A stretch of 64,000 bases of DNA from Cyanidioschyzon merolae (GCA_000091205.1 AP006497.2), one strand, 5' to 3'. Counted from the stretch's first letter, positions 1 to 40,345 are shown. Numbers and translations: made by a program. Notes: a model not told the origin generated them from the letters alone.

Positions 1-1646
1 GCATTTTGCGCTGCCGTTGCTGCTGCGAGATGACGACGACGACGACGATCCTTCGCTGTTTCCGCACGTCGACGGTGTGGTCGGCTGCGCTCGCGATCTC
101 CCAGGGCCCGCAGCTCGTCCGTATGGGCTGCAGCGTGCGTGCCTGCTTCGATATCTCGGCCCGCGTTCGTTGATTTGCCGTTCATGTGGGCGTCTTGCAT
201 GGAGCGAGTGCGTTCAGCCTCTTTAGTGGCGCTCTTGGGATCACTTTCAGAATGTGCATTCCTGGTGCCGACTGGAACGGCGAGGTCGTCTTCGATCTCA
301 TCATCATCATCATCATCGGCATGGTGGCGCCTAGAAACGCTCTGTTCCGATTCAGAAGAAGCCTCGACGGAGCTTGCAGGACGCACACCGGCTTGTTCGT
401 CTTCTGAACATTGACCCTCGCAGAGCGAGCCGTCCCCGTCAGGCAGCTTTTTTTGTCTCTCGCTGGATGCACGTTGTCGCATCGTCTCGTTGGGGTGCGC
501 GTCTCCATTCACCACGTCGTAGACGTGATCCTCGTCTCCTGTTGCTTCCACCTGACCCATAATCCGGAATACCTGCACTTCTTCGCCTTTGGCAAGACAA
601 AGATCCTTGCGAAAGCGTCGTACGCAATCCCGATGCTTCTTGCTATGCTCATGATTTTCCCACTGGGCAAACGTTTTGAAATACTTCTTACACGCAAGGC
701 ATTGAACACCTTCGATCGTTGGTTGAACCGCATCACTTGCTCCGTGAGGCTGGTTCACATCAGGTGCCTCCTCGCTGATGCCAGCGTACTCCAAATGCTC
801 CAGTAGCTCCTCAAGATTCGGTATATCCTCTTCAAGCTGCGCAGCAAGCCTCGCCGCATGCAGAGACCGAAGGCGTTCCCACTGTTCTCTTTCCTGGACT
901 TGTCGTTCTAGCTTCTCAGCTTCTTTTCGTGCTTCTTCTTCCTTGTGTTTCAATACTCGACGATCCCGCTTTTTCACAAAGGCAACGAGCTCTCGCACGA
1001 GCGCTTGGAACTCTCTGCGAGCACGCTCCCGCTCGCGGCGGTTGTCGCGTTCTATGGCCCGTCGAATCTCCCGGTTCGGCGCCTCGCTCGGGTTCCAGGA
1101 GTCCGCAAACGCGAACGTCTTCGCTGATACAAAGTTCTCCCAGAAGTTATAGAAGCGACGTACACTGGGCCAGTCCGCTGTGGCACTGCCGAACGGGGGC
1201 GGCTGTGCGCCTCCGGCTGCCACCTCTTCTCTCGCAAGCTGCTCGAACGCTGCTCCGTATACGTGATAGAAACCTCGTTCTCCGTCTTCGTAGCCATTAT
1301 AAGCAGAAGATCGGAAATATTCATATATATTGAGTTCTGTCGCCCGGTTCACCGTACGCTCTGTACGAGAAGCGGCACCGGTGTCCGTCCCAGGCGCTTG
1401 AGTCGCCTCCAGCGGATCCCGGCCGCGCAGGATATCCTCTCGGTGGTCATCATACCATTTTCGTTCATGTGGGTCTGAAAGCACTTCGTAGGCTCTCCGA
1501 AGCTCCTTGAAAGCCTCCGCTGCCTCTTCTGGTCGGTCGGGATTCTTGTCAGGGTGCAGGCGAAGCGCTGCTCTGCGAAACGCTCGCGTGATCTCCTCCG
1601 CGGTGGCGTCCCGTGGAACACCAAGAACTTCGTAGTGACAGCGCAT
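1..1646 (-). CDS. DnaJ (J-domain) plus C2H2 zinc-finger protein, DNAJC21/Jjj1-like. The 3' end of the gene runs off the window start.
   Basis: Own translation of the minus frame starting at the ATG at 1646 gives MRCHYEVLGVPRDATAEEITRAFRRAALRLHPDKNPDRPEEAAEAFKELRRAYEVLSDPHERKWYDDHRE (J-domain with HPD motif). This is followed by a C2H2-type finger CLACKKYFKTFAQWENHEHSKKHRDC and an acidic tail. The ORF track shows no ORF here because the frame stays open to position 1 and is therefore partial. Confidence 0.75.
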   Translation of the reverse strand, partial: MRCHYEVLGVPRDATAEEITRAFRRAALRLHPDKNPDRPEEAAEAFKELRRAYEVLSDPHERKWYDDHREDILRGRDPLEATQAPGTDTGAASRTERTVNRATELNIYEYFRSSAYNGYEDGERGFYHVYGAAFEQLAREEVAAGGAQPPPFGSATADWPSVRRFYNFWENFVSAKTFAFADSWNPSEAPNREIRRAIERDNRRERERARREFQALVRELVAFVKKRDRRVLKHKEEEARKEAEKLERQVQEREQWERLRSLHAARLAAQLEEDIPNLEELLEHLEYAGISEEAPDVNQPHGASDAVQPTIEGVQCLACKKYFKTFAQWENHEHSKKHRDCVRRFRKDLCLAKGEEVQVFRIMGQVEATGDEDHVYDVVNGDAHPNETMRQRASSERQKKLPDGDGSLCEGQCSEDEQAGVRPASSVEASSESEQSVSRRHHADDDDDDEIEDDLAVPVGTRNAHSESDPKSATKEAERTRSMQDAHMNGKSTNAGRDIEAGTHAAAHTDELRALGDRERSRPHRRRAETAKDRRRRRHLAAATAAQN

Positions 1647-1722
1647 GACAAATGTTTGTGCCGCTTTTGGGGTCTGCCCCTGATCGTTATTAGAACCCCA
1701 CCAGAAGAAACGCATTTTCCCA

Positions 1723-1794
1723 CGGAAGCGGCAGCGAACGCCGTTCAACAGTCGAAAGTCGCCAGCAGTGTACAGTAGTTGCGAATGACCTGCC
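1723..1794 (-). ncRNA. Candidate omegaRNA scaffold / right-end module of element F0
   Basis: Non-coding stretch downstream of the nuclease stop. It contains block 'ctgtacactgctggcgac' and terminal block 'gaacggcgttcgctg', both shared with the other copies. See the findings. Confidence 0.3.
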
Positions 1795-2235
1795 CTAGAC
1801 GAGACACGTCCGAATGACGTGCAGACGCCTCCCAGTATTTTTGGACCGGCCACCGACTACTGGTTCCATTTTTTTCTCATATAATCTAACCTTGAGATGT
1901 TGCCCTGCAAAAATTTCTCTTGTCATCTCTGGAGGCCTCTTGTCCATCACCGCACGTCTCCTGATATTGATAGTGGCATTAAAGTCTCGATTCACAAACT
2001 CCATGCGTTTCCTGCCATTGGTAGTTGTATTCATTAGTGCGAGTAGTCCGCGAATTTTCGCCTTAGTTTCCATTTGCACTTCCGCCAGCGCTTTGTACTT
2101 TTTTACACCCTCAAGGCTCGGCTGACACTGCTCCATCTTGACCTTCTGGAGCGTACACCACAGCTCGTGGCGTATGTTGGATGTTCGGAACTCATATATC
2201 GGTATTGTGACGAAACATCGTGCGCATTCCTTGTA
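1723..2235 (-). pseudogene. 3' fragment of a TnpB/Fanzor-like RuvC nuclease element (copy F0). C-terminal about 145 aa plus the conserved 3' non-coding module.
   Basis: Minus-frame translation: ...AYKECARCFVTIPIYEFRTSNIRHELWCTLQKVKMEQC...GRKRMEFVNRDFNATINIRRRAVMDKRPPEMTREIFAGQHLKVRLYEKKMEPVVGGRSKNTGRRLHVIRTCLV*. This is homologous to the C-termini of copies at 8.5, 18.3 and 39.1 kb. A stop sits immediately upstream at about 2235, so the copy is 5'-truncated. CxxC..H..C..C zinc-finger residues are retained. Confidence 0.7.
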
Positions 2236-2889
2236 CGCTCATTGCGAGTTGCTGTAAACCGGAAACGAAATTCTCCTCGACAAGCCATAAAAGTGGTGTT
2301 GTGGCTTTCCGCCAGACACGGTGGCTGTTTTTGCCGTGTCCATGGTCCCGCAGGCGTGTCCCGGAGTGCGCTGACTCCATAAAAGCCGCGAGTTCGCGCT
2401 GCTGCCCTGGCATCGGGGTGCTGGCGGCTCCACAGCACAGATACCTCATGATGTGCGGGCGAAGCATGCTGCTTCAGCACCGTAAGAACGATGCGCTCTC
2501 ATGCGCGTTCCCCTATGATCCGAGATGTAATCCACAGAGTGATGCTGGCGGCTATGACCGAGCGTCTTGCATATAGAATGCAAATCTGGGAACTGCGGCC
2601 TAAGGCTCGGAGTTCCAAGTCACGAATGGTCCATATGCTCACGATCGGTACTCGAAGCGAGCGCGCTGGACATTATACACTGCTTTGCTGCACGAGAACA
2701 GTGCTATGCTCGGGGCCGGCTAGAGTACCTTACGAAAAGTCAGCAGGAACGTCGCTTTCAGGTACGGTGCGTGACACGGGCTAGGCGAGAGCGATCCGTT
2801 TGCGAATCATTTCGGAATGCGAATTCGATGTTCATGAGTGTCTTCCCGTAGTAATGCCTCTTTACTTCAGGTTCGAGGCGCGCCTGTTC

Positions 2890-3662
2890 GAGTTGGTTTA
2901 GCGCTTGCGTTCGAGCTTTTTGTCGATTCCATCGGGAAGCAGACCTGCTTTTTATTCTTCCTTGCACTCCGTGATTCAAGCCCATCACAGACGTGTTTTC
3001 TATCGTGAAACGTAATGATCGCTGCACTGGGCGAATCGCTGAAGCGTTCTGCACAATCACGTCGGAGCATATATCGTCGTTTTTCAGCAAGTCTTTCTCC
3101 CTCCGGGCAGGTCGTCGACTACGGGCATTCAGAAGTACGTGCATTTGTCGAAATAGAAAATCCATGCGAAAAGTATGGACATGAAAGTTAGGGATCCCGG
3201 AGGGTCGTCATTGCCAGGCGCCGGAAAAATGGATATATTGCTCTCCTCGTCGACCAGTGAGCGAAGAAGAGCAAGCGAAGATGATGACGAAGAAGAAGAG
3301 AATAGATAGGCGAGAAAAGATGGATGCCCGACGAGACGCTGGCGATTCTTTATTAGCACTGACGGCGCGAGTTCTAGCAATCCTGGCAATCGTGCGTTCA
3401 ACCGTCGACGATGCTCGCATGTAGCTCGTGAACCGAGACTTCACTGTCACCATCAATATCAGACGATGCGCGGTGCAGGAAACGATACCCGAGGAGCTAT
3501 GACGATCCAACTTCGTAGGGCATGCGCTCAGGCTCGACGCGTGCCTGGATACACTGAAGCTGCCAGCAGGTGGCTGGTCAGAAAAAATGGGAGGCTTCTG
3601 CACGCGGGCACCAGTTTAACCTCCATGGGCGCGAAATGCCTATCGTTTTACTGACTACAGAC
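2890..3662 (+). mobile_element. Internally deleted (non-autonomous) derivative of the Fanzor-like element (F0b). 5' leader segment is joined directly to the 3' about 350 bp including the RuvC-III remnant.
   Basis: 2890-3167 is homologous to 16060-16329 (leader of copy FA). 3168-3290 matches the FA start ('atggacatgaaagttagggatcc' vs 'atgcacgtgcaagtcggggatcc') up to 'cgacgagacgctggcga'. It then jumps to the sequence encoding ..LVNRDFTVTINIRRCAVQETIPEEL* and the 3' module ending about 3662. Confidence 0.6.
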
Positions 3663-4541
3663 GTTCATTCTCGAGCTCGCTCGTACGGCCACCAGCAACT
3701 AGTATACTGTGTTAAGAAGCATGCACAGTGAAATTCCGCAAAAGCTGAGCAGTCACCTGCATGCTGTTCTGATCTGGTAGGCTCGTACGCCATTTGGAAC
3801 GTTGGAGTCGTTTGCTTGTGCCTCCTTCGCGAACGAGCGATGCGGCGTCCGGAACCTTGGCCAAAACGCGTTCCAATACATTATTTCGAAAAGCTGGGCG
3901 TGAGACGCGAGTCAGGACGAAACGGCAATGCGCGCTCAAAGTATGGAAGACTCGATAGAGTCGACCTATCGAAAACAGCTGAGAACCCGAGGATACCAGT
4001 CGAACTTCAACGGTCTTGGACGAAGTTCACAGCCTCAGCACTTGAAATGCCATCCAAATCGCATCAAAACTTGAATATTGTTATTCGGGAGCAAATCGCG
4101 TCTCCGCGCTGGCCTGCCAGGGTTACGCCTCCGATGCCGTTCAGGTAGCCTTCATTGGAACTGGTTGTCTCCCAATGAGCCGTCTCGCTCGGCGGACCGC
4201 TCCCGCAGGCAATGTGCGTTTCCATTCAAAGTCAATCACATGCATCAAGCGTTCCAGGCGCTGCTCATTCGCCTGCACGGGACACTCGCAGGGCAACACG
4301 CTCTGCAGGCACAAGACACTAGTACGATATGCGCGTCCTTCGCAGATCAGCTCCATAGATTGTGGAACCCAAACGACGCTCCACATTCACCCAAGGACGA
4401 GAGAGCGCCCGCCCCGCAGAGCGATGGGATCCGCACGCGGCTCCGGTGCGCAGCCGCTGCCACGCGTCGTTATCGGGAGGCCTCTTCCGACTGACGGCAT
4501 CAGGTCATCACACGCTCATACAATGCTCAATCTCCAACCGG

Positions 4542-7554: not shown

Positions 7555-8547
7555 TTAGTGCGTTTGCTGGATCTCCCGTTGAATCTCAGCAAGCGCCAGG
7601 CGCACGTCCCGCTCTGTTACCACCCTGTTTTCTCGTGCACACTCTTGGAAGAGGCTGTACAACCGCCTTTTGGCGGCGCCCCAGGCATATGCGTACTCCA
7701 GCTCCAGCACCCGCTTGCCCTGAATCGAAGGCGGAAACGGAGACATTTCCACGTCGACGGCACCATCCGCAGCCTGTTCCTCATCAAAAAGCCATTCCAG
7801 ATGCGCAGCGTTTCGTTGTGAGCTGCAGGCGTCACATGGACAGACTACCGCCTCCAGTTCCTCCACAGTCACAAATATCGGAGCCATTTGCTCCGACTGC
7901 GTCGACGTGTCGCTGTCAAGTACCGCTTGCGCAATGCAAAGCGGTTTCGACACGCTGCCCGCTGCCTTGGCAGCGGGCACCCATAGCGCCAAGGGGCTGC
8001 AGCTCCGCCGGCACGCAGTGCACACAAGCAGCCCGTCCGTGGAGCCCGTCGTCGCGTCCAGGCCACCGAGGCACTTGACGTGGAACCAGTCCTCACAACC
8101 AATACACTGGTGCATGGTGTCGTCTTTCTCGCCTTGATACTCGGCGTCACATACACAGAACCTGTTTCGAGCGTTGTGATGCTCTCGCAGCCACCACACC
8201 TGAGAGGTCGGCAACGGCGCAGCGGCAACGTCGCTTAGCGCACAGTGCGGAGGCGCACACTGGCATACGAGTCCGTGCTTGTTTCCCAGCGCAAACGTGT
8301 CGTGGTCTGCGTGGCAGGCATCCGCACACGCCTGGCATACGATGGACGGTAAACTGGGGCCCTCGGGCAGCGCTGCCCGCGTCGTGCACGTCCGACAGAC
8401 ACACACTGCTATTGCACGTTCTGCTTGAGAGCGCTCGCGAGCACACTGCCAGTTGTGCTCTGGACACGCAGCACTGACTAGGTCCTCCAAGGTCACCACA
8501 TCCTCTGAGTCTTCGACTGAACCGAGAGCGTGCTCACTAGACCCCAT
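7555..8547 (-). CDS. Cys-rich UBR-box-like plus PHD-finger protein (UBR7-like)
   Basis: PHD signature CVCDAEYQGEKDDTMHQCIGCEDWFHVKCLGG, preceded by a C/H-rich UBR-box-like N-terminus. The track start at 8574 is TTG. The first ATG (MGSSEHAL...) is at 8547. Confidence 0.55.
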   Translation of the reverse strand: MGSSEHALGSVEDSEDVVTLEDLVSAACPEHNWQCARERSQAERAIAVCVCRTCTTRAALPEGPSLPSIVCQACADACHADHDTFALGNKHGLVCQCAPPHCALSDVAAAPLPTSQVWWLREHHNARNRFCVCDAEYQGEKDDTMHQCIGCEDWFHVKCLGGLDATTGSTDGLLVCTACRRSCSPLALWVPAAKAAGSVSKPLCIAQAVLDSDTSTQSEQMAPIFVTVEELEAVVCPCDACSSQRNAAHLEWLFDEEQAADGAVDVEMSPFPPSIQGKRVLELEYAYAWGAAKRRLYSLFQECARENRVVTERDVRLALAEIQREIQQTH

Positions 8548-10919
8548 GCTTCGGGCGCCGTGGCAAAAGTGCAAACCCCTGGAAACAAACGTCTTTCAAA
8601 AGAAAAACGATGCAGCCTGCGGTATACAGAAATGGCGCGCAGCGCGCCCGAGTCAGAACGTCTCCAGCTGACGTGCAGTCGCCTCCCCGTCTTTTTGGAC
8701 CGGCAACCTACTACTGATTCCAACTTTTTTTCATATAATTCCACTTTGGGAGGTTTTCCAACAACGTTCTCTCTTGTCAACTCTGGAGGTCTTTTCTCGA
8801 GCACCGCACATCTCCTTATATTGATGGCGGCGTTAAAGTCTCGGTTCGCAAACTCCATACGTTTCTTGCCATCATTGGTTGTACTTACTGATGCAAGCAA
8901 TCCTCGAACTTTCGCTCTCCTTTCCATTTGCTCTTCCGTCAGCGCTCCGTACTTTTTCGTATCCTCAGGGCTCCGCTAGCACTTTTCCATCTCCACCCTC
9001 TGAAGTGTACACCCCAGTTCATGGTGTGTATACGATGTTCGAAACTCATCCATTGGTATCGTAACGAAACGCCTCGCGCACTCCTTGTACGTTCTTGTCG
9101 TTGGAGCTGGAGTAGTCCCTTTTTGGGTCTTCCAGCGCCCTGCTCCGTACCCTGCTACGAGCCTCTGACTTTTATCCTCCTTCAGGGCACTCAACTGATT
9201 GAAAAAACTCTCGAACGCACGCTGCTTACCACACTATAGATTCATTCGCAAACGAGCCCACCGGGGCTTGGTATACTCCTCCCACAATGCATTCCAATGA
9301 GCAACGCGAACTTCCATGAATTTCCGAAAAGCTTTAAAGTCCGCTCCTCGGCTCGTCACCTCGCTCACAGCTTCCAGGTGCTCGTTCATTCCTGCATTCC
9401 ATTTCTCGATTTTCTTCCTCGTATTCATGATTCCCGATTCTCGATGGTATCTCGCTCTCGAGAACCTCAAAAGACGCATATCTTTCTGATGCAAGGTACC
9501 GTCAGTACCATCTTCCCCACGCTTCGGTGCTGCGATGGTTATGATACTTGTGTTTCCAGCGTCCGCGCCAACGACAAAGTCGTTCTCGTGCATCTTCTGT
9601 GTCGCAGGACCCGCCTTCTTCTCATCTTCATGGTTCTCCGAGGGCGGAACGGGCCGATCCACACTCAACCGCCGATAGTGTATGCACCTGGCTACTCCAT
9701 CGGTTTCGATCATCCCAGTGAATACCTTTTGTCTGCTTACTTTCAGACGTTTGAAATCGAAGATACTCTTCCGGGGCATCTCCCGGTTTTCGTCGGTGAA
9801 CTCCTCCCTGCGAACATCGAACTCCGGACAGATCTCCTTCAAGATGCCATGAAGGATTCTCGAGTCCATAGTCACAAAATGTGACTTGATATTGCAAATT
9901 GGAACCATGTTGAAGCGCTTCCCCATTAGGGCCGACTTCCGCCTCTCCCACTCTTTATTTGTCTCCTCACTCAGCTTCCTCTCTGCCTGGCGTTCGAGTT
10001 CTCGGTCCAGAACCACAGAATAGCGCAGGACGAGGCGATAGTATCTTTCCTTAACTTTTTTTCAACTCTGATATCTTTTCTGTTGGATTCGCCAGCTCCA
10101 AGACTGCACGGTGCTCTTGTATTACGGCACGGATGACGGAGTCCTCATTCATGCTCTGGTTTGACGCCTTCTTGTCGACGAATTCGATCTCATCTTCATG
10201 CTTACGATCGTTCGTGGTGCCATTGAGGTCCGCCTATACTCCATTGCGAGAGATGCGCGGGTAGCGTGCAAACACGGCACGTATCATGAAACGTTCGAGG
10301 TTCATTGTCAAATGGTTCTTCAGATTCGTGAGGTATTTCATGGCCCCATAGTCCTAAATATCCCGGTCACCCCTATACCGAGTACCCTCGAAGCGGAATT
10401 CCGGGAAGGTTTCGTGGAGGACATGCACTGCTCATTTTCCCTCCGCGCTTTCGCTGTACCAAGCATCAGGTGACGAATAAACGTCGTGTCGAAGAATTCT
10501 TCCGGAATCTCGACTGTTTCCATGTGCGTCACGTCGCGATACATCTCCTTCACCAAATGCATCAGTCCTATAGAGTCCATACGAACCCTCGTGAAGTACG
10601 AATCAACATAATTTCTGATGGCCTCTCGCAGATTTTGCTTGTGCGGATCCTGAATATGGCCTAGATGGCATGATTTCTTTACAATCTTGAAGTAGGGTCG
10701 TCTTTCGAGTTGCATTTGGCGCCGGGCCCCCCCTTGTTTTGCGTCATCGTCGTGTCTTGTTTCTCTTCGGTCGGTATTCTTTTTCGCTTTTTCCGCTAGC
10801 CGGCGACGCTGCCCCTCCAGGATCCTCCACTTCCTTTTCCATAACTTTCCTCTTTTATTTTTTTGTAACGCACTTTGAACGCTTCTGCTATAAACCGCGA
10901 AAAAAACACGAGAATACAC
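8493..10919 (-). pseudogene. TnpB/Fanzor-like RuvC nuclease, disrupted (copy F1)
   Basis: Basic N-terminus (KRGKLWKRKWRILEGQRRRLAEKAKK, NLS-like). 10020-10340 has no open frame. The ancestral stop is lost, so the last piece reads through into the 3' module. The CxxC zinc-finger pairs are degenerate. Confidence 0.65.
8575..8640 (-). ncRNA. Candidate omegaRNA scaffold / right-end module of F1
   Basis: Minus-strand 'ctgtataccgcaggctgcatcgtttttcttttgaaagacgtttgtttccaggggt' shares a 35-nt block with copy FA at 18579-18613. Confidence 0.3.
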
Positions 10920-12450
10920 TTGTTTGAGGTTTGAGACACAAATGAACGGAAAAACTGTACTTTGCTACAACTTTAACGCAAGTACAACTTTTATATTAGA
11001 GCAGCACGCTATTGATCAGGATCGCGTTTCCCTTCAGCTGCGGGATGCGCGTCGTGACTCGAAAACTAACAGATCTCCCTGGTGCGCAAATCGATAGCGC
11101 TATGTAGAACAAAGAACAGAGACTCACGACTAGCGAGCAACGATACAGCAATTTCTCTCCCGTTCTACGATAAACGTTGAAAACGGGGAAAAGGTTCCCA
11201 TATTCTGAAGAGTCCTCCCTCTAGGCGAAAAGTCCCGCGAGCCGGACGAGTCTCCCGGACTCGTGCTTCGTGCTCCACCCAGTAGCGGGCGCTGTGGCGA
11301 GACCTGAGCAGTTCGTCCGCAACGCGGTTCATTCTGGGACTAGATGCGGGATGCTGTGTTTGGTCGTCGCCCTGATCGCAGTAGACTCCTAATATATCGG
11401 TTCGCGCTTTCGCAGGCAGTAGTTCTGTCTGTTTAGCCTACAGGCTCCCAGAATTATTCTGGACTCCAACGCTGTATCAGGTAAAGCGTTCCTCAATCCG
11501 TCGCCCTCAGTGGTATGGCAACGCTGTTCTATCTCCATGATGCATCCGTCCCAGTGGTATAGGCGCTAAGGCGGGTGCCCAAAGCAGGCACTCGGTCGCA
11601 CTACAGAACGCACAAAACGATCTGTACATCCGAAAGGAAGTATAAGGAACGGAGCATGGAGGTAGAGTGCATCATGATGGACACTTTTTCGATCAGCTAT
11701 ACCCATCCATCTCGCTATCTGGAATCCAAGTACAATGTAAACGTTTTGTCATTGGAGAGAAATCAGCGGCAACAGCAAATGCAGCGGATTTTGTTCCATG
11801 TGAAAACTTCTCACACAGGCGAGCGTGCCGCGACTCTGTGTGCTTGCTACCTGCGCGCGGTGAAACTTTCGTCGTTCCACGCTTTACGTCCGAGTTTCAT
11901 AACCCATACTTCTTCTCGGATGTACTGGCGTTTCAGACGTACTATCGGGCGCCGAGTGCCTGCCCGTGAACATCCGCCTCAATAGCGCTTGTAGCGCCGG
12001 TGCTGTCGTAGCACAGAAACAGAACGGCGTTGCCGTACCGCAGACGGCGTCTGCTCGAGGCATGCTTCACCTGACGTAGAACTGGGTCTCGTTGTCAGGT
12101 TGTGCTCGGACAGCCTGCGGATGCAAAACTTGCTTTCGCTGCACAACACATTGGAGAAACTTGGCTGTTACGATGAATCCTGGGAGCCGCCTCTCTCCTG
12201 CGTGATCGTACATGGAAAGCGTCGCCCTCGGTTGGCGACTCGGGTCTGTGCTTGGCACCCACCAGTGAGTAGGTACGCGTAACACTGGTCCCGTGTGCGC
12301 ATCTGGTTTGCTGGACCTTCCACCTAGAAGGTAGAGTATGAGTTCGCTGACCACTGGTGAGTGCTGGAGCTCAGTTACGGGACCATCAGTTGCTAGCACT
12401 ACACTCAAAGTAAGTGGCTGGCCTTCATTTACCACAGTGATTCCCAGATG
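8575..12450 (-). mobile_element. Full-length but decayed Fanzor/TnpB-like element (copy F1): about 1 kb 5' leader with internal inverted repeat, nuclease coding region in four ORF pieces, 3' module
   Basis: ORF pieces 10919-10338, 10016-9234, 9194-8976 and 8927-8493 align in order to the copy FA/FB proteins. RuvC-I is [15 protein letters not shown] and RuvC-III is NRDFNAAINIRR. The leader at 10930-12000 is homologous base-for-base (indel-rich) to 35.9-37.06 kb. Inverted-repeat arms are about 11300-11640 and 11905-12230. The 5' boundary is approximate. Confidence 0.65.
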
Positions 12451-12701
12451 TTAATGTCTCTCAAAGAGATAGCTGCGTTCTTTTTTTCCAGCACAGGCAC
12501 AGAAAGCTTAAGTGTGCTGGCGTCTCTGGCATCCCGATTCCGCTGCACCGAACGCCGCGATCCTTCGAAGCCCTGCATCGCGAGCACGCTGCCGCCCATC
12601 GTCGATGATCACGAAACGATTTTTCCGTTCGTGTTGCATGAACGTTTGCGTTCTTACTTGATTGCAACTCGCAGTTTCATTGTTGTGTATAACGCTGGAT
12701 A

Positions 12702-13424
12702 ATGTTCGTGCTTACAACAAATAGCCTTACGTTTAGAACGGTGCCTCGGTGTTATCCTGGTACGGTCGAACGTCAGCATACAACGCTGGGCAGGAAGCGT
12801 GTGGCACTGCGCATGACGTATGCGCTGCCGAGTACAGTTGATAACGCGCGTGGAGGGAGCGGAAGCGGTGGCGACGGTGGCGGCTCCTCGGGCTCCGATG
12901 ACGACTACATACCAGATATGGGGAAGCGCACGCTGCTGAGCCTCATTCTCTTGGGTTCAGTTGGACTCCCAGCAAGCATCATGCTGAGCACATACGCAAG
13001 CTACTTCATGCCGCCGTCGAAGAACAAGAGTTCAGGCGGCGTGATTGCCAAGGACGCCCTCGGGACGCCTATCAAGAAGGAGGAGTATCTGAAGACGCAT
13101 CCCCCCGGCTCTCGTGATCTTGTGCAAGGCCTGAACGGGGAGCCCACGTATCTTGTTGTGAACGACGCCGGCGAGCTCGAAACCTACGCACTGAATGCTG
13201 TTTGCACGCACCTCGGCTGCGTGGTGCCTTGGTACGCAGCACAGAACAAGTTCATTTGCCCTTGCCATGGCTCGCAGTACGATCGTACAGGGAAGGTGGT
13301 GCGCGGTCCAGCTCCGCTTCCGCTCGCTCTGGCACATACCAAAGTGGATGATGACGGGTTCGTACAGATCAAACCCTGGAAGGAGACCGACTTTCGAACT
13401 GGTGAGAAGCCCTGGTGGAAGTGA
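12702..13424 (+). CDS. petC: Cytochrome b6-f complex Rieske iron-sulfur subunit (PetC), nuclear-encoded with N-terminal targeting extension
   Basis: [19 protein letters not shown] (PetC membrane anchor), and [10 protein letters not shown]...[31 protein letters not shown] (b6f-type Rieske 2Fe-2S boxes). About 70-aa presequence rich in S/T/R/G. Confidence 0.9.
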
Positions 13425-14668: not shown

Positions 14669-16539
14669 GGCAAAAACGCAACTCGTGAACGTCCCCCGGC
14701 TGCTGGGTTTTCCTCTCGCAACAAGCTCGACTCGAAAGGCAGCGAGATGTCTACCGAAACATTCCAAGCGTTTTACGGATCAGTGCGCCCTCAGCAGCGC
14801 CGTGCGGAAAAGCGCTCTGAACGATTGGATGGGATCCAGATGCCTATGCTGCAGGGTATTTCCTGTGAATGCAGAGCACTCGTTTCCGGTTTCTATGTTG
14901 CCGTCGCATGCACAGGTGTAAGCGGACAGTGAATTGACCTCTTGCGCTGCACTCGTGAAATGTCGAGCACGAATTCATCCATGTCAAACTGAAATGGTAT
15001 TTGCCGCAAGCTTCCCATGAAGAGGCATTTGCTGGTCGCATTTGGACTTTGGAAGCGATGCTGAAGACAAGTTCATCGCCGCGAACTCGCGTTGGAGCGG
15101 GATGCTTTGGCATTTCGCGACTGCAAAGCAACGTTCAGTGAGTGCTGGTGAGTGCCAGCACGCACATGCCAGCACCATGCCCTGAACAGACCCAGAAAAC
15201 GAATCGACGCGAATGTTTAGCTGCTTTTTCACCAGATGTGTCATATTGGCATCTATCGGATGCGTGAACGCTACCATCAAAGAGGCCCGAGGTTTCCGTT
15301 CTTGTAGTCTTTGTACTAAATTCTGTTTCACTTCCGCTGCGATGTCTAGAAGGAGATCGAAATCACAATGCAATGCATAGTGTAGATCGTAGATGATTTG
15401 CATGTAGCATATACATTCATTTCTGAACAGTGCAAGGAAGACTGTATTCCTCGTTTAGGACAGTCATACCACCGTACTCAGATGGTTGGCAAACACTGTA
15501 AGAAAAATGTAGATGCACTCCGTGCCAGAGATCGATATTCATTGAGGTCGCTTGCAGTCGATCTTAGAAAACGATCCGTTGATCACCATTTTCGGAAAGC
15601 AACAGCGACGATAATAGCCGCCACAGGCGTCACCGTTTCTCAACAGCTTATTCTTATGATCCCGAAAACATTGGGATACAATCTCAAAAAAAGTCATCGT
15701 TCAAGCAAAGGCATCTTCCATCCAAATCGCAACGACAGAGTCCCTGGAACGTCACGATCGATAGGAACCACTGGATCGTCAGTTTGTTTGTTCAGTTGAT
15801 GAAAATTGCTTCAGAAGGCACGCTCGGAGCGTCAATGGGTATTCGAGGTGAAGGGCGCCCGTTGTACGTTCGATCGAGCTCGAAGAGAACGACGAAATCA
15901 TCATCTATTATAGCTTTAGAAGATTTATTTGGCGGCCTCAGTTTCACTTGTAGAAAAGACACATGCAACAGCACCAACCAATTTGTCCAAGCATTGAAGA
16001 CTTTTACCCGACGTCTGGCGACGTCCTTCTATTGGGCAACGTGGCATATCACCATATCGCTTGCGTTCGAGCTTTTTGCCGATTCTATCGGGGTAGGGGT
16101 GATTTTTGTTCGTCTGTGCGCTCCGTGGTTCAAGCGCATTGTAGGAGTGTTTTCTATCGTGAAACGTGATGATCGCTCCCCCGGGCGAAACGCTGAGCGT
16201 TCATCACTCGGTAACACATCGGGGTACATGCCATTTATCTTGCGAAAGCCACGCTCCCTCCGAGAAAGCCCTCATCTAAGGGCAAAAAACGTGCGGTCGT
16301 TTTGACGAAATAAAACTCCAAAACAAAGCTATGCACGTGCAAGTCGGGGATCCTGAAGGGCCCTTGCCGCCGGCTGGCAGAAAAAAACGAAAAATTCTGC
16401 CAATGGAATAGGAACAAAACAGAACGAAGAAGCAAAAGGGCGAGGCCCGACGTCAAAAGCTGCGCGAAAGACGACTATGCGACGAGACGCTGGCGAAAGC
16501 CTGTCTTGGTAACCATATCAAGGATTCGGACAAGCAAAC

Positions 16540-18528
16540 ATGCAACAAGTCATCCGAGACCGTGTCGAGTCGCACTCCATGAGTATTGTAAAGGATTCTT
16601 CAGGACTAATGCCTTTGACGAAGGAGATGAATCGCGGCGTGACGGGCATCAAAACAGTCGAGGTTCCGGGAGAATTTTTCAACACCATCGTTATGCATCA
16701 CCTGATGCTTGGCACAGGGGAAACGTCGAGGAGAAAGGAGCGAATGCATGCCCTCCACAAAATTACCCCGAATACCCTTTTCATCGGTAATCGATACCGG
16801 CGTGACTCGGATATTTACACGTACGGGGCGAAAAAGTACCTCACGAACCTAAAGAACCATATGAACATGAACCTCACACGTTTCATGATACGTTCCGTCT
16901 TCGCGCTGGACCCGTGCCTCTTTCGCAAAGCGATAGACGGGTTACCATCAATGGCATCTCGAACGATAGTAAGAACGAACAGGAGATCGAACTCGTCGAC
17001 AAGAAGACCTCGCACAGGAGCATGAATGAGGCTTCTGTCATCCGCGCGGCTATTCAAGAGCACCGTGCACTCTTGGGGCTCGTTGACCCAGCAGAACAGG
17101 TATCAGAGATGAAAAAGATGGAAAAAGAAAGATGTTACCCACACTTCCTGCGCTATTTCGTGTATTTGGACCAAGAACTCGAACGCAAGGCTGGGATGGA
17201 GCAGGGTGTGCGGAAAAATGCAGAGTCGGTAGAACGGAAGGCTGCGCTTGCGGGTACGCGCTTCGAAGTCGTTCGGTTATGCGAGATCAAGTCGCACTTT
17301 GTGACAATCGACTCCAGAGTCCTTTACGGAATACTGAAGGAGATAAGTTCGGGGCTCGATGTACGCAACAAGGAGTTCACCGGTGAAAATCGGGACACGT
17401 ACTGGACGCATGTCTTCGACGTCAAGCGTCTCAATACGAGCCAGAAAAGGTATTCAGAGGTGTCATCGAAACTAAATGAGTAGCCATGTGTGCACACGAT
17501 CGGCGCTTGAAGGCAGATCGTCATATCGTGCCTTCGGCTTCGCCCGTGACGAAGCATGAAGATGTGAAGCAGGCGGATCCCGCGACGCAGGAGGTTCAGG
17601 ATACTGGCTTTGGCGGCGGCGCGGACCCTGGGATGACGAATATCATAACGATCGCAGCACCGAAGCGTGCGGGAGATGGTGCTGATGGTAACCTGCGTCA
17701 GATAGAAATGCGTCTCTTGAGGTTCTCGAGACCGAGATACTACCGAGAATCCGGTTCAATGAATGCGAGGAAGAAAATCGAGACATGGAATGCAGGAGTC
17801 AAGGATCAGCTGGAAGCTATGAGCGAGGTGACGATCCGACATGCGGACTTTCAAGATCTGCCAGAGTTCATGGACACTCAAGCTGCTCATGTCGAGGAGC
17901 TGCGGAAAGAGTATCGAAAACAAAGGTGCGCTCGTCAGCGTTTGAATCTGTACAGAGAGAACCAGCGTGCATACGCCAACGATTTCAATCCGTTGAGCGC
18001 CTTGAAGGAGGACGAGAGTCAGAGGCTGGTAGAAGCGTATGGGGCAGCGCGCTAGCTGGCCCGAAAAGGGACTACGCCAGCTCCAACGACAAGAACACTC
18101 AAAGAGCGTACACGGCGTTTTGTTACGATACCAATAGGTGAGTTCCGAACATCGTATACACACCATGAAGTGAGGTGCGTACTTCAGAGGGTCGAGATGG
18201 AAACGTGCCAGCGGAGCCAAGAGGATATAAAAAAGTACAGACCGCTGACGGAGGAGCAAATGGGAAGGAGGGCAAAAGTTCGCGGACTCCTTGCATTCGT
18301 GAGTACAACCAATGATGGCAAGAAACGCATGGAGTTTGTGAACCGAGACTTTAACGCCGCAATCAACATCAGAAGATGTGCGCAGCTGGAGAAAAGACCT
18401 CCAGAGTTGACACGAGAGAGAATTTTGTCAGACGACCTCTCAAGGTCGAAGTATACGAGAAAAAGTTGAAACCAGTAGCAGGTGGCCGGTCGAGAAAGTC
18501 GGGAAGGCGTCTGTACGTCGGCGTATAG
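16540..18528 (+). pseudogene. TnpB/Fanzor-like RuvC nuclease, disrupted (copy FA)
   Basis: Pieces 16540-17025, 16914-17483, 17486-18055 and 18170-18469. RuvC-I is GGGADPGMTNIITIA at about 17618-17656. RuvC-III is NRDFNAAINIRR at 18341-18370. An in-frame TAG follows ..EAYGAAR at 18053. A 1-nt frameshift at about 18425 truncates ..PPELTRE. The N-terminus is frameshifted relative to F1. Confidence 0.65.
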
Positions 18529-18613
18529 GCATCCGATCTGCGGCGCGCCGCTCGCCACTCCTGTACCCCTAGCGACAGCGTTTTTCTTGTGAAAGGCGTT
18601 TGTTTCCAGGGGT
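18529..18613 (+). ncRNA. Candidate omegaRNA scaffold / right-end module of FA
   Basis: 'ctcctgtacccctagcgacagcgtttttcttgtgaaaggcgtttgtttccaggggt'. Similarity to the other copies ends exactly after 'ccaggggt' at 18613. Confidence 0.3.
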
Positions 18614-21683: not shown

Positions 21684-21959
21684 CGCTGCGCGCCTCCGCG
21701 CGTAACCGCTATGTTTTTCGTGGAATACGACGTCTGCGATGAACCTGAATATCTCGAGTACGTGATTGTTGTCGGCAACGAGAAAACAGGCGACAATTCC
21801 TTTTCAGATGGTTTGATGCTTCACGCCTGCCAGCACAGTCTCTCGATTCGAACATAGGATTCGACTCAACGACTTTTGGGCTACAGTGCTCACTCGACGG
21901 TAAGCTCGCCACGACATCCGATTCTTTTCATGGACAAAACGTTTCCATCGGCCAGCGTT

Positions 21960-22340
21960 CTCCGATTACGCGCATTTTTCTTTTCTTACTTTTTTTGTGT
22001 TTTTTTTTCAGTGCGCGGTGAGGTATCCACCAAATCCCCTACTTCCATGTTACATTACCTGCACTTCGTCTCGGATATTCTGGTCGTTTCATACGTCCTA
22101 TCGTGTGTGCCTAGTACCTGCCGAAAGCGACAGCAATAGCGCCTACAGCGCCAGTGCGGTCGCTGCACGGAGACAGAGCGGCGTTGCCGTAACACAAAGG
22201 GCGGCGGCTCGAGGCGTGGCTCACCCGACGTAGAATCGGGTCTCGTCGTCAGTTTGTGCTCGGAGAGTCTGCGGATGCAGGCTTGTCTTCGCAGCACGAC
22301 ACGCTGGAGAAACTTGGCTGTTAGGATATATCCTGGGAAC
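21960..22340 (+). repeat. Solo fragment of the Fanzor-element 5' leader (one inverted-repeat arm plus simple-sequence spacer)
   Basis: 22040-22340 is homologous to 11890-12220 and to 36285-36600. A T-rich tract at 21975-22010 sits where the other copies carry CAG/CAA repeats. Confidence 0.55.
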
Positions 22341-35299: not shown

Positions 35300-38200
35300 T
35301 AGATTTTTTTAGGATTGTCGATCGTGGTTTCGGAGTGGCTCCTGCGACGCCATGCCGCTGGTTTTCGTGATGCCGCTACGATCCGCATGATTCGTGACGC
35401 TTTTGCGGACGATTCCGGAAATAAATGATACCATGATTCCAGTTCACATGCACAAGCTTCTATGCTCCTCCGTTCCTTGCATATAGCATGCTTGGATCAT
35501 GCATTGTTTACGTTTTTGATCTCTCCGTTTCAACGCAACTCGCGCCGCTGAATCGACGACGAAAAGAGCTCGACGAAACCCCGTGAAGACCGCGTCACAA
35601 GATCGTACCACAAATTCACTAAACTTTTCATTCCAAATAATAAGTTCAATTCAAAAGATAAATCCTCCTCTAATTGCGGTCATCAACGAAGCTGCATTCG
35701 ACAACAGCGGCGGCATGATGCCTGTCACAGGAGGTGCTCCCCGAGGCTTCCGCTTTCTCTGTGAGGAAAATGGTAATGGACCCGGCCATGGGTCATCACA
35801 GGGATCGCTACTGATAGAGCGCGCGTCGACATATAAAGCGCGAAGCGAGCGTAGACGGATCGAAAGTTTTGGAGTTGATCTCCAGCCTGGGTTGCCGTCT
35901 TGGTGCCTGATTCATCATGGACGGTAACATCGCGTCCCAAACAGCCTCGATCTTGGAAAGCAGCGTGCGCTTGCACGACCAGCGGACAGGGTACTCACCG
36001 AGGATCTCGCGCAGAGGAAACCCGTAATCGTCGGGTACAGCACAACGCGCTGCATCAAAGGGAGGCATCTTGCAGCGCCCTGCGTACCGGTCAAGCGGTT
36101 GTACTGAGCGGTGAAGCGAGCGCTGACGAGCGATAAGCGGCGGTTCCTCAGCAGCAGCAGCAGCGATACTGACTTTTTCGATGACAAAACGTTTACATGG
36201 GCTATGGATCTCAGATTGCGGGATGGATATCGGTAATTGAACATGCGCCCATCATGAAGCATCTACATGAAAGATCCATCACCTGTACTTGCTCTCGGAT
36301 ATACTGGTCGTTTCGTGCGTTCTAGCGTGTGCCGAGTGCCTGTTTGGAGCACCCGCCATGCGCTTAGACCGGTGGGGCTGATGCATCACAGCGGCAAAAC
36401 AGCTTTGCCCTGCCAGCGAGGGCGTCGACTCGAGGTGTGATTCACTATTCACAGGATCGGAATTGGTGATCATTTTGGGAGCCTGCAAGCTGCGCAGACA
36501 GACGTACTTTATGCAGCGGCGCCAAGCGATATTCGAGAAGTCCACGACGACCAGGGCGACGCCTAGACGCAGGCTATGCGCTCCTAGTCCCAGAATAAAC
36601 TGCGATGCGGACGAGCTGCTCAGGTCTCACGAAACCACCTGCAACTGGGGCGAGCACGAAGCGCGAGCCCGAGACACTCGTCCGGCTCTCAGGACCTTCC
36701 GCCTAGAGGATAAACTTTAGACAGTACGGAAACCTCTCCCGCTTTTAACTTTATATCGTTGCTAGTTAGGAGTGAGCCTCCGTTCTTTGTTCCGTATTGC
36801 GCGCTCGACACGCCCACCTCCATACTTGGCTGGCTGGCATGAAACACGACGTGCATCTCGCCGATGAAGAGAAACGCGATCGCGATCATTCGTTGACTTG
36901 GTGCTCTAACAGACAAGTTGCGTTTGCGCAAAAGTCCTAGAAAAGTATAGTTTTCATTTCAATCGCGTTTCAACCCTCAGTTTAGTGTACGCAGGTGATT
37001 TTTCGCGGTTTACACCAGAAGCGTTCAAAATGGGTTCATGTTCAAGAAAATATAGGAAAGTGATGCACGTGCAAGTCGGGGATCCTGAAGGGCCCTTGCC
37101 GCCGGCTGGCGGAAAAAAACGAAAAACTTTGCCAATGGAATAGGAACAAAACAGAACGAAGAAGCAAAAGGGCGAGGCCCGACGTCAAAAGCTGCGCGAA
37201 AGACGACTATGCGACGAGACGCTGGCGAAAGCCTGTCTTGGTAACCATATCAAGGATTCGGACGAGCAAACATGCAACAAGTCATCCGAGACCGTGTCGA
37301 GTCGTACTCCATGAGTATTGTAAAGGATTCTTCAGGACTAATGCACTTGACGAAGGAGATGAATCGCGGCGTGACGGGCATCAAAACAGTCGAGGTTCCG
37401 GGAGAATTTTTCAACATCATCGTTATGCATCACCTGATGCTCGGCACAGGGGAAACGTCGAGGAGAAAGGAGCGAATGCATGCCCTCCACAAAATTACCC
37501 CGAATACCCTTTTCATCGGTACTCGATACCGGCGTGACTCGGATATTTACACGTACGGGGCGAAAAAGTACCTCACGAACCTAAAGAACCATATGAACAT
37601 GAACCTCACACGTTTCATGATACGTTCCGTCTTTGCGCTGGACCCGTGCCTCTTTCGCAAAGCGATAGACGGGTCACCATCAATGGCATCTCGAACGATA
37701 GTAAGAACGAACAGGAGATCGAACTCGTCGACAAGAAGACCTCGCACAGGAGCATGAATGAGGCTTCTGTCATCCGCGCGGCTATTCAAGAGCACCGTGC
37801 ACTCTTGGGGCTCGTTGACCCAGCAGAACAGGTATCAGAGGTGGAAAAAGATGGAAAAAGAAAGATGTTACCCACACGTCCTGCGCTATTTCGTGTATTT
37901 GGACCAAGAACTCGAACGCAAGGCTGGGATGGAGCAGGGTGTGGGGAAAAATGCAGAGTCGGTAGAACGGAAGGCTGCGCTTGCGGGTACGCGCTTCGAA
38001 GTCGTTCGGTTATGCGAGATCAAGTCGCACTTTGTGACAATCGACTCCAGAGTCCTTTACGGAATACTGAAGGAGATAAGTTCGGGGCTCGATGTACGCA
38101 ACAAGGAGTTCACCGGTGAAAATCGGGACACGTACTGGACGCATGTCTTCGACGGCAAGCGTCTCAATACGAGCCAGAAAAGGTATTCAGAGGTGTCATC

Positions 38201-39349
38201 GAAACTGAATGAGTAGCCATGTGTGTACACGATCGGCGCTTGAAGGCAGATCGTCATATCGTGCCTTCGGCTTCGCCCGTGACGAAGCATGAAGATGAGA
38301 AGCAGGCGGATCCCGCGACGCAGGAGGTTCAGGATACTGGCTTTGGCGGCGGCGCGGACCCTGCGATAACGAAGATCATAACGATCGCAGCACCGAAGCG
38401 TGCGGGAGATGGTGCTGATGGTAACCTGCGTCAGATAGACATGCGTCTCTTGAGGTTCTCGAGACCGAGATACTACCGAGAATCCGGTACAATGAATGCG
38501 AGGAAGAAAATCGAGACATGGAATGCAGGAGTCAAGGATCAGCTGGAAGCTATGAGCAAGGTGACGATCCGACATGCGGACTTTCAAGATCTGCCAGAGT
38601 TCATGGACACTCAAGCTGCTCATGTCGAGGAGCTGCGGAAAGAGTATCGAAAACAAAGGTGCGCTCGTCAGCGTTTGAATCTGTACAGAGAGAACCAGCG
38701 TGCATACGCCAACGATTTCAATCCGTTGAGCGCCTTGAAGGAGGACGAGCGTCAGAGGCTGGTAGAAGCGTATGGGGCAGGGCGCTAGCTGGCCCGAAAA
38801 GGGACTACGCCAGCTCCAACGACAAGAACACTCAAAGAGTGTACACGGCGTTTTGTTACGATACCAATAGGTGAGTTCCGAACATCGTATACACACCATG
38901 AAGTGAGGTGCGTACTTCAGAGGGTCGAGATGGAAACGTGCCAGCGGAGCCAAGAGGATATAAAAAAGTACAGACCGCTGACGGAGGAGCAAATGGGAAG
39001 GAGGGCAAAAGTTCGCGGACTCCTTGCATTCGTGAGTACAACCAGTGATGGCAAGAAACGCATGGAGTTTGTGAACCGAGACTTTAACGCCGCAATCAAC
39101 ATCAGAAGATGTGCGCAGCTGGAGAAAAGACCTCCAGAGTTGACACGAGAGAGAATTTTGTCAGACGACCTCTCAAGGTCGAAGTATACAAGAAAAAGTT
39201 GAAACCAGTAGCAGGTGGCCGGTCCGAAGAAAACTGGGACGCGTCTGCACCTCAGTTCGGGACGTCTTGTCAAGGGCGCTGTCGTCGCCACGTCTGTATA
39301 CTGGCGGCGGCGACGTTTGTTTTTCGAGAAGCGTTCGCTGGTATCAGCC
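35300..39349 (+). mobile_element. Fanzor/TnpB-like element copy FB: leader with about 300-bp inverted-repeat arms (about 35590-36020 and 36285-36720) and a CAG spacer, nuclease region, 3' module
   Basis: The leader at 35.9-37.06 kb aligns along its length with the F1 leader. The core 37064-39232 is about 98% identical to FA. The 3' module ends in 'gcgttcgctggtatcagcc' (39331-39349), a variant shared with F0. The 5' boundary is approximate. Confidence 0.65.
37272..39203 (+). pseudogene. TnpB/Fanzor-like RuvC nuclease, disrupted (copy FB)
   Basis: Same ORF pieces and same lesions as FA: stop after ..EAYGAGR at about 38786, and a frameshift near 39160. RuvC-I is GGGADPAITKIITIA. RuvC-III is NRDFNAAINIRR. 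Confidence 0.65.
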
Positions 39350-39388
39350 GTGGTCGCGCGTGTTTATTCGGTCTTCGACAGGCGCGAC

Positions 39389-40345
39389 ATGTTCCTAACC
39401 CCAGTTGGCACGTCCTGCACTGGAACGCTTCGACGTCCGATAATTGGGAGGCAGCGTTTACAAACCGCCAAGCTCGGGCGTCTGGTGGCTCGCACCGCGG
39501 TCCCCGACTCCCTTGAAGTTGCGGTAGCGCAGGCGCAGGAGGCTACTCGGCGTGCCCTGGCAAACTCCTTGCGTCAGCTGCGACTCGAACTCGATACGTC
39601 TCTCGGGGACGAGACCTACTCTCGATTGAAGCAAACGTTGCCGTTCTTGCGGCTGCTTTGTTTGGCCCTGCTTCAAAGTGACGAGTCGTTGAGGTCGAGT
39701 CTACGAGTCCTTCTTCCAGACGAGGGTGCGGCGGCAGCTCTGCGTAACGACTGGAAGTCCGAAGATCAACTATCTTCAGTTCCGGTATTTTCAATAGAGA
39801 GTAGAGTGCGGCGACGTGAGCTGGTCGCCGAAGCACGTGAACATACCGTGACCTGTCTGGCGGTGACGCCGCGCGCTACCGAAGTCGACGCGCTCCAGGA
39901 ACTGGCTCGTGCTGCGAACGAGCACGATTCACTGCGTTTGATTGTACTCAATCCAGAGTTGATCGATATGGGTGCAACTGGGCTGGGACTCGCAGCGCGT
40001 CGCCTGCGCGATCGCCTCCTGAACGGTCTCGAGCCTGTCTATTATCTGCGCACAGCGCCGTGGGGTCTCGTGCTACGTGTTTATCCCGACGCGTGGAGCG
40101 TCTGGATTGATCGTGAGCGGTACCTGGCCGTGAAAGGAGAGCATGAAGCAGAAAATGCTGCCAATGACGACGACGCCTTCGTTTGCATTGCAGACGACTG
40201 GCAGGAGCAGCCCACTGGTGATGCGCTCGCAGACCTGGTGGAGTCATTCATGAATCCAGAGCAGGCGTTAAGTGGTCCGTTGGCAGGGCTTATGCAGTCG
40301 TGGCGGAGTCTACAACGTTTTCTTCGGGCGCTTCGCCAAACTTAG
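39389..40345 (+). CDS. DUF1995-domain protein (chloroplast LPA3-like family), tentative
   Basis: VAQAQEATRRALANSLRQLRLELD.. and LIVLNPELIDMGATGLGLAARRLRDRLLNGLEPVYYLRTAPWGLVLRVYPDAWSVW resemble DUF1995 conserved blocks. The track ORF starts at 39215 inside the element; the first ATG after the element end is at 39389. Confidence 0.45.
   Translation: MFLTPVGTSCTGTLRRPIIGRQRLQTAKLGRLVARTAVPDSLEVAVAQAQEATRRALANSLRQLRLELDTSLGDETYSRLKQTLPFLRLLCLALLQSDESLRSSLRVLLPDEGAAAALRNDWKSEDQLSSVPVFSIESRVRRRELVAEAREHTVTCLAVTPRATEVDALQELARAANEHDSLRLIVLNPELIDMGATGLGLAARRLRDRLLNGLEPVYYLRTAPWGLVLRVYPDAWSVWIDRERYLAVKGEHEAENAANDDDAFVCIADDWQEQPTGDALADLVESFMNPEQALSGPLAGLMQSWRSLQRFLRALRQT

Follow-up and report, generated by a model that had tools for sequence, protein, structure and literature searches.

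About half of the right ends of Fanzor1 CMe-1A transposons lie just upstream of same-strand host start codons in Cyanidioschyzon merolae

We analysed a stretch of 64,000 nucleotides (hereafter referred to as the window) that forms part of chromosome 15 of Cyanidioschyzon merolae 10D. It has a G+C content of ~55% and few introns, and five of its predicted proteins exactly match annotated 10D proteins with locus tags of the CMO series (for example BAM81455.1, BAM81446.1 and the petC product, BAM81447.1). Self-comparison revealed a repeat family with ~70–80% identity between copies. These repeats are old copies, mostly pseudogenes, of the C. merolae Fanzor1 transposon CMe-1A, a family that has already been described, and the leader noticed in a preliminary description of this DNA is the element TE-N2_CMe. 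According to the published account (Bao & Jurka 2013, PMC3627910), CMe-1A is present in ~150 copies of ~3 kb with ~80% identity to the consensus, without terminal inverted repeats (TIRs) or recognisable target site duplications (TSDs), and its 5′ 635 bp also exists as the solo element TE-N2_CMe, in ~70 copies. Our assignment is based on this published description rather than on alignment to the Repbase consensus: the organism is C. merolae, two of the copies in the window (F1 and FB) are ~3.2 kb long, solo leaders are present, and no TIR was found in the repeat scan of the window. With organism, size, lack of TIR and TSD, Fanzor1 protein and the shared 5′ ~635 bp all alike, the published family is the very one studied here. 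Its accessible description says nothing on the placement of copies relative to host genes.

Five copies lie in the window, and the 3′ ends of four are located 3–39 nt upstream of a host ATG in the sense orientation. F1 (8575..11765, minus strand) is a full-length CMe-1A copy of ~3.2 kb whose Fanzor1 open reading frame (ORF) contains stops and frameshifts; its end at 8575 (...GTTTGTTTCCAGGGGT) is 27 nt from the ATG at 8547 of an MLO2-like/PHD gene (7555..8547, minus strand; BAM81446.1, 330 aa). FA (15301..18613, plus strand), a chimeric copy, terminates at 18613 with the same 16-mer as F1, 39 nt from the ATG at 18653 of a GLTP-domain gene (18653..20743, plus strand; 696 aa). FB (~36170..39353, plus strand), full-length and with its ORF broken by stops, terminates with ...GTTCGCTGGTATCAGCCGTGG at 39349–39353, which is 35–39 nt from the ATG at 39389 of a DUF1995 gene (39389..40345, plus strand; BAM81455.1, 318 aa). 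F0 (1719..2240, minus strand) is a 5′-truncated copy that keeps only ~520 nt of the 3′ end (...GTTCGCTGCCGCTTCCGTGGG); this end, placed at about 1719–1723, is 3–7 nt from the ATG at 1715 of a DnaJ/ZUO1-like (DNAJC21-like) gene (1..1715, minus strand) that runs off the window. The fifth copy (2899..3668, plus strand) is decayed, has an internal deletion and belongs to a second subfamily. No sense ATG adjoins the 3′ end of this copy; facing it, at a distance of ~870 nt, is the stop codon of an Omp85-like gene (4542–6167, minus strand). Conceptual translation showed that F0, F1, FA and FB are all pseudogenes, with stops or frameshifts in the ORF.

We checked the start codons by comparison with Cyanidiococcus yangmingshanensis (L093) and with a second Cyanidiales lineage (L094–L096), which have the gene order kinesin, GLTP, MLO2-like, Omp85 and DnaJ in common. 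In an alignment, the start methionine of the MLO2-like protein was the same in the two other Cyanidiales lineages, 20 residues before a conserved DVVTL. Three GLTP proteins, including both outgroup orthologues, align from the first methionine. Both Cyanidiococcus and the second lineage share the DnaJ N-terminus MRFFWW(R/G)S, which matches the reading from 1715, not that from 1646. The preliminary description had correctly reported the F1, FA and FB junctions, giving 39 nt for FB (35–39 nt in our analysis), and had noticed the in-frame ATG at 1715; its start codon for DNAJC21 at 1646, ~76 nt from F0, is however an internal methionine of the J-domain. Its count of four adjacent ends out of four becomes four out of five when the decayed copy at 2899–3668 is included.

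To quantify the placement more widely, we scanned JGI (Joint Genome Institute) metagenome contigs, from which 80 loci out of 380 matches were used, a sample that favours copies whose ORF is fairly intact. Searching these loci and the window with an nhmmer profile built for the 3′ module gave 91 strong right ends. Clustering of the downstream flanks at >=90% identity reduced them to 50 non-redundant sites, at 49 of which the first downstream gene was scored. The nominal element end was set at box + 38, anchored on the conserved box GCCACTACTGTACAC. Genes were called from ORFs and codon scores, with a minimum of 60 aa and training on long ORFs of the same data. As the null, we used random intergenic positions and orientations in the same sequences with the elements cut out, applying the same caller and first-ATG rule. 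The next gene was in the sense orientation at 40 of the 49 sites (null 0.49, p=3e-6). A sense gene with its ATG within 60 nt was found at 23/49 (null 0.047, p=5e-18), within 100 nt at 26/49 (null 0.076, p=9e-17) and within 150 nt at 31/49 (null 0.11, p=5e-18). The bias in right-end distance and orientation, which the preliminary description had proposed to tabulate genome-wide, was thus borne out at the 49 non-redundant sites, as was its judgement that the placement is unlikely by chance; for the 4/5 in the window, simple arithmetic from the null of 0.076 gives a probability of ~1.5e-4.

Ten predicted host proteins were compared with the 10D annotation, and nine of them equal the annotated proteins in length. 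These nine, encoded on nine different chromosomes, are an anion transporter, TFB5, a PPT-like translocator, SEC11, CMM332C, a macro-domain protein, RPL37A, Smt3 and ProA; RPL37A and Smt3 also have the same length in Cyanidiococcus. This agreement indicates that the rule is genome-wide and independent of start-codon choice. The anion transporter downstream of the element at L055 has two paralogues that are at least 90% identical (BAM83046.1 and BAM79923.1), on different chromosomes. The caller's use of the first in-frame ATG could shorten some distances, L050 being an example, but chance or an artefact of taking the first ATG of any open frame has next to no probability as an explanation: the null, with the same first-ATG rule, gives p values of 1e-16 to 1e-18, the starts of the MLO2-like, GLTP, DnaJ, RPL37A and Smt3 genes have been checked, and the 10D annotation agrees in 9/10 cases. 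The null comparison, the cross-species start checks and the annotated lengths together effectively refute it.

These results show that about half of the right ends are followed, 0–100 nt further on, by the conserved start codon of a host gene encoded on the same strand. The ATG is within 30 nt of the nominal end at 11 of the 49 sites, and within 13 nt of the homology-defined end at seven loci. At several loci an intact tail lies only 4–20 nt from the ATG, which argues for precise placement and not for later deletion. Our literature searches, which did not cover subscription journals, found no report of a positional bias. As far as the accessible text of PMC3627910 goes, start-codon adjacency, sense orientation and the preference for divergent spacers described below are additions to the published description of the family.

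We then examined the element ends. The 5′ end of the family reads about GATTTTTTTCGA|TGACAAAACGTTTAC; that of F1, at ~11765, is GATTTCTCTCCAA|TGACAAAACGTTTAC, and F1 terminates at its 3′ end with ...CCAGGGGT. The 3′ ~215 nt of the element overlap the end of the ORF, with the Fanzor stop codon ~95 nt before the element end. A consensus fold of this region (RNAalifold on 48 copies) predicts a 12-bp long-range helix, in which CAGTAGTAGGTGG pairs with CCGCCACTACTG, enclosing two hairpins; the conserved box GCCACTACTGTACAC is the 3′ arm of this helix. The terminal hairpin occurs in two mutually compensating versions, CGTTCGACTTTCGAACG and CGTTTTTCTTTTGAAAGRCG, while covariation is thin in this predicted omega-RNA fold, the copies being ~85% alike. 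In F1, the omega-RNA-like module (8575..8860, minus strand) comprises the RuvC-III coding motif, the predicted long-range helix CAGTAGTAGGT../..CCATTTCTG (box), two inner hairpins, CGTTTTTCTTTTGAAAGACG as the terminal hairpin, and a tail of 16 nt. No Rfam family matched anywhere in the window, including the 3′ module.

Past the terminal hairpin, nearly all copies have TT(T/C)G followed by a G/T-rich tail of 10–20 nt, and six independent loci end in the identical 16-mer GTTTGTTTCCAGGGGT with unrelated flanks beyond it. The right end is therefore precisely defined for that group. The same sharing would be expected if integration took place beside a short motif common just upstream of start codons, as the preliminary description had suggested. 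However, in 847 kb the 16–20 nt tails were found only attached to the element hairpin and never free-standing, so that they are part of the element itself and not a motif of the target. The flanks past the tails have no common motif by eye (no motif search was run), and the distance from the exact end ...CCAGGGGT to the ATG varies from 27 to ~250 nt. We rejected this explanation on the evidence of the tails and consider it very improbable.

The density of ATG triplets drops toward the right end: it is 3/kb in the last ~125 nt, 21–25/kb just upstream, and 6–8/kb in ordinary host upstream regions. This ATG-poor end is a trait inherited from the family consensus, so that the copies are not independent evidence. 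The sequence CTATATGAG is conserved ~25 nt before the start of the long-range helix; its conservation is ambiguous, as it is coding sequence.

The element protein has the split RuvC motifs GADAGN, DEFRTS and NRDFNAAINI, which read GADAGN, MDEFRTS and NRDFNAAINI in F1; FB has an Asp to Gly change beside the RuvC-II Glu. In a 38-sequence family alignment, D421, E592 and D659 (P0120 numbering) are invariant. Searches of Pfam, NCBIfam and, with single sequences or shallow profiles, PDB gave no match, Pfam yielding only a sub-threshold PF07282 match at the RuvC-III motif. The deep profile alone succeeded: built from 38 members (A4), it matched the Fanzor1 structures of Parasitella (9cf0, E=1.2e-20), Spizellomyces (8gkh, 3.5e-13) and Guillardia (9cer, 1.2e-8). 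An AlphaFold model of P0120 from a 10-sequence alignment had a confidence score (pLDDT) of 38. The protein has hundreds of relatives in hot-spring-type metagenomes, with 2,201 representatives at the 50% identity level. By analogy with characterised Fanzors, RNA-guided cleavage that depends on a target-adjacent motif (TAM) is a putative activity of the CMe-1A protein.

We compared the CMe-1A copies with several classes of transposon. A subterminal hairpin is present at the right end, as in IS200/IS605 elements, but no fixed motif was seen outside the left end, unlike in IS200/IS605, and the Fanzor ORF was the sole coding region recognised in F1 and FB, whose other small ORFs were not searched. 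At the left junction, no TAM-like motif was visible beyond the T-rich element terminus. The position of a hairpin 15–20 nt from the end, and the absence of both TIR and TSD, would fit a Helitron-like non-autonomous element, but the element ends are (G)ATTTTT...CCAGGGGT, not TC...CTRR. Distant intact Fanzor1 relatives in another organism (P0120; 699 aa, 43% identical; L086–L089) lie directly downstream of genes for DDE_3 (PF13358), a Tc1/mariner-type transposase domain, one example being at 485–1690 and 2094–4193 of L087. This arrangement suggests that the transposase-less CMe-1A lineage descends from the cargo of a DDE transposon. The C. merolae copies themselves have no TIRs and no transposase ORF that we could recognise, unlike a Tc1/mariner-borne Fanzor1.

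A second, more divergent subfamily has the 3′ terminus ...GGCGTCTGC followed by ..AATTTACCC... It is found in the window at 2899–3668 and 15301–16325, and at L028 (8180–9480), L049 (~11534–12899), L063 (6857–8154) and L076 (~12331–13258). At the 4–5 unique loci whose flank is long enough, the gene that follows is again in the sense orientation, ~260–340 nt past the end of the 3′-module alignment.

The other side of the elements also has a characteristic neighbour. At ~20 of 24 unique element 5′ ends the 5′ neighbour gene is divergent; among well-supported calls and the window's own copies, divergent neighbours outnumber tandem ones by 12 to 2. The divergent ATG is 40–700 nt, typically 150–400 nt, from the element 5′ end. 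Spacers bearing an element are mostly head-to-head, whereas only ~22% of element-free spacers are (counts not de-duplicated). The non-element DNA left in such spacers is about the size of an ordinary divergent spacer (median 345 nt), which indicates that the elements sit at one extreme edge of the spacer.

Comparison with Cyanidiococcus bears on the history of these insertions. There, the MLO2-like and GLTP genes are direct divergent neighbours, 0.87–1.15 kb apart and without any Fanzor remnant, whereas in C. merolae each of them has a Fanzor right end at its ATG (F1 and FA). The orthologous spacers without an element indicate that insertion of the copies most likely took place in the C. merolae lineage, although these spacers are not alignable at the DNA level. 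The comparison with an element-free state envisaged in the preliminary description is thereby available at this distance, but empty alleles were not found in close relatives: every metagenome contig with the DUF1995 gene, from several metagenomes, also has FB with the same junction, and no record exists of the exact GLTP protein. Since all DUF1995 contigs carry FB, the insertions are fixed in these populations. C. merolae has the petC gene (12702–13424; ATG at 12702) between its MLO2-like and GLTP genes, while these two are directly head-to-head in L093 (6855–8001) and L094 (7132–8001); either petC moved into the element-rich spacer or it was lost from it elsewhere.

Further features of the window concern the structure of individual copies. 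FA is composed of a second-subfamily part (15301–16325), a 2.2-kb internal tract (16325–18519) that is 98% identical to 37057–39253 of FB, and its own older 3′ end (18520–18613). Outside the tract, the terminal ~95 nt of FA and FB are ~75% identical and the 5′ parts are unrelated. This pattern of identity marks the tract as the product of ectopic gene conversion between old copies, here separated by 20 kb, and not of a new transposition. A TE-N2-type leader fragment (11885..12185, plus strand) is inverted relative to F1, lies head-to-head with it and points to petC; it had been taken for a part of F1 adjoining petC, but it is separate, and the 5′ end of F1 is at ~11765. A solo leader of the TE-N2_CMe type is located, as previously noticed, in the sense orientation 385 nt 5′ of the kinesin ATG at 22724, although it starts at ~21920 rather than at 21960 (~21920..22340, plus strand); a possible divergent ORF with a weak coding score of 10.5 (21174–21683) is ~236 nt from its 5′ end. 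The solo TE-N2 leaders are few, and their placement relative to start codons is mixed. Leaders are often arranged head-to-head, with a second element or TE-N2 fragment inverted at the element 5′ end (11765–12185 in the window; L035 and L082); further insertions could be drawn to element 5′ ends, or there could be a preference for palindromic arrangements. The window also contains a 98-nt unit in three perfect or near-perfect tandem copies (60964–61257), a 69-nt dispersed repeat with 61–71% identity (35699–35767, 46751–46819 and 63351–63419) and an inverted pair of ~340 nt with 65% identity (60135–60470 and 63269–63605). The last two may represent further low-copy repeats that have no relation to the Fanzor family.

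How could right ends have come to lie beside start codons? We favour, with middling confidence, the explanation that the element end donates the promoter and 5′ untranslated region (5′UTR) to the host gene, and that the bias is set mainly at integration, the survivors then being filtered. Promoter donation had been among the possibilities raised in the preliminary description, and the geometry supports it. Because an ATG 3–60 nt from the element end leaves no room for a promoter, and the old upstream DNA is ~3.2 kb away, the host core promoter, the transcription start site (TSS) and most or all of the 5′UTR would lie inside the last 100–200 nt of the element, unless translation follows a 3-kb ATG-rich leader. 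For scale, the only published C. merolae TSS that we found is ~165 nt upstream of its ATG (PMC12989068). With the Fanzor stop codon ~95 nt before the end, there is also no room for a separate terminator and promoter before the host ATG. The ATG-poor end, the conserved CTATATGAG and the lack of terminator space fit promoter donation, and none of them proves it.

In the mechanism that we propose, the omega-RNA module would be transcribed outward across the junction to acquire a guide, and this read-out would carry the host ORF along. The position of the guide would fall on the host gene's own 5′UTR or start codon, a point anticipated in the preliminary description that follows by analogy from the anatomy of Fanzor and its omega-RNA. 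Less certainly, the element may enter promoter regions that are open and mostly divergent, in a strand-specific manner and at the extreme 5′ edge of the transcription unit. One possible route would be entry of the element sense strand into the displaced non-template strand near the TSS, resulting in co-orientation, and only those insertions that keep the host gene expressed would then survive. A site preference operating via chromatin or single-stranded DNA is possible.

A bias produced by survival alone, without any bias at entry, seems unlikely to us. Insertions would have spread over intergenic DNA; copies that took over host expression could no longer be deleted, and the others would have been purged from the streamlined genome. 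Such a history agrees with the age of the family, whose copies are ~75–85% identical to each other (see also PMC3627910), and with the retention of small 3′ fragments: all that remains of F0 is the 3′ ~520 nt, located exactly at the start of DnaJ, and L020/L021 hold a 511-nt 3′ fragment 29 nt from an ATG. The sole non-adjacent copy of the window is also the most decayed one (nhmmer 64 bits versus ~300). Across the sample, however, the 3′ modules of adjacent and non-adjacent copies score alike (median 230 versus 235 bits, p=0.6), which favours a bias at insertion over differential decay, and full-length dead copies persist in both classes. To reach 53% from an expected 7.6%, ~90% of the non-adjacent copies and almost none of the adjacent ones would have to be lost. 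The intact tails 4–20 nt from ATGs also speak against survival as the sole cause, and the preference for divergent spacers is left unexplained by it.

The position of the presumed guide raises another explanation, namely homing or drive. TnpB homing is known from IS200/IS605 elements. If the guide lies at a constrained and often essential start site, sloppy repair of cleaved empty alleles would be lethal, and homology-directed re-copying of the element would survive. At the 11 of 49 sites with an ATG at most 30 nt from the nominal end, and at the seven loci with one within 13 nt of the homology-defined end, a guide of 16–20 nt would cover the start and first codons, such as those for the MRFFWW of DnaJ. 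The host genes include those for RPL37A, TFB5, Smt3, SEC11 and a DnaJ, gene conversion between copies occurs (FA/FB), and the catalytic triad is kept in the family consensus. Nevertheless, all four copies in the window are pseudogenes, the TAM is not definable at the left junction, and the divergent left neighbour is unexplained. Host expression with 3.2 kb before the ATG is likewise unexplained, so that promoter donation would be needed as well. We consider homing a rather improbable cause of the placement, while a homing or drive benefit from start-codon guides is possible and compatible with a bias at integration.

Several points weigh against donation combined with biased integration. The 3′ modules of adjacent copies show no extra conservation, and the stronger depletion of upstream ATGs in adjacent than in non-adjacent copies is only a trend, not significant. 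Within the element, conservation is lowest in the terminal 50 nt (0.6 versus 0.85–0.9). The TSS is placed inside the element by geometry and not by observation. To our knowledge, CMe-1A has no known transposase or integration mechanism, and no HUH enzyme is linked to the family; its distant relatives lie beside DDE_3 genes, and DDE_3 by itself would not predict strand-specific insertion. Finally, the copies sampled were selected for fairly intact ORFs, and the gene calls outside the checked cases come from a simple ORF and codon-score caller.

Transposons that target promoters or TSSs include Tf1 of Schizosaccharomyces pombe, Ty3 at start sites of RNA polymerase III (Pol III), P elements and Mutator, and Helitrons supply promoters and 5′UTRs in bats. 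The C. merolae Fanzor copies resemble these in their insertion at gene 5′ ends, in open promoter DNA and in a compact genome, with the element sometimes giving a promoter or 5′UTR. However, Tf1, P and Mutator insert 100–400 bp upstream with no strong orientation rule, and Ty3 is limited to Pol III genes, whereas the right end of the C. merolae Fanzor is 0–100 nt from the ATGs of Pol II genes, with a ratio of ~4:1 for the sense orientation. Bacterial insertion sequence (IS) elements with outward-facing promoters can drive an adjacent gene or replace its promoter; those cases are sporadic and usually selected events, whereas here this would be the majority state of a whole eukaryotic transposon family. 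The closest likeness in anatomy is to OMEGA systems with TnpB and to Fanzor (Saito et al. 2023, PMC10432273), in which the gene for a RuvC nuclease precedes a structured RNA at the right end, with the guide in the flanking DNA, and in which outward transcription across the junction is intrinsic, as we infer here. The flank in those systems is an arbitrary target beside a TAM, whereas for half of the copies studied here it is the 5′UTR or start codon of a sense host gene; in addition, the C. merolae copies differ from OMEGA/TnpB systems in that we recognised no TnpA-type transposase and could not define a TAM.

We raise, as a speculative proposal whose likelihood we rate as low, that the omega-RNA module is the standard 5′ leader and core promoter of ~1–2% of C. 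merolae genes (~80 of 4,775 by extrapolation), including those for RPL37A, TFB5, Smt3 and SEC11, and that these host mRNAs are guide-RNA precursors. If so, the primary transcripts would begin with an omega-RNA scaffold and continue into a guide made up of the gene's own 5′UTR or start codon, and the Fanzor protein could bind or process these mRNAs, or home onto start codons at which sloppy repair would kill the cell. Among eukaryotes, Fanzor takes the place of TnpB and Cas12. C. merolae offers a whole family of these elements in a transformable model alga with a 16.5-Mb genome, their guide-bearing ends standing in a fixed relation to host genes. This makes testable where transcription of a eukaryotic omega-RNA originates, whether read-out can replace host promoters on a genome scale, and how a transposase-less Fanzor chooses its sites. 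Strand-specific integration at transcription start sites, if borne out, would suggest a new mechanism of targeting.

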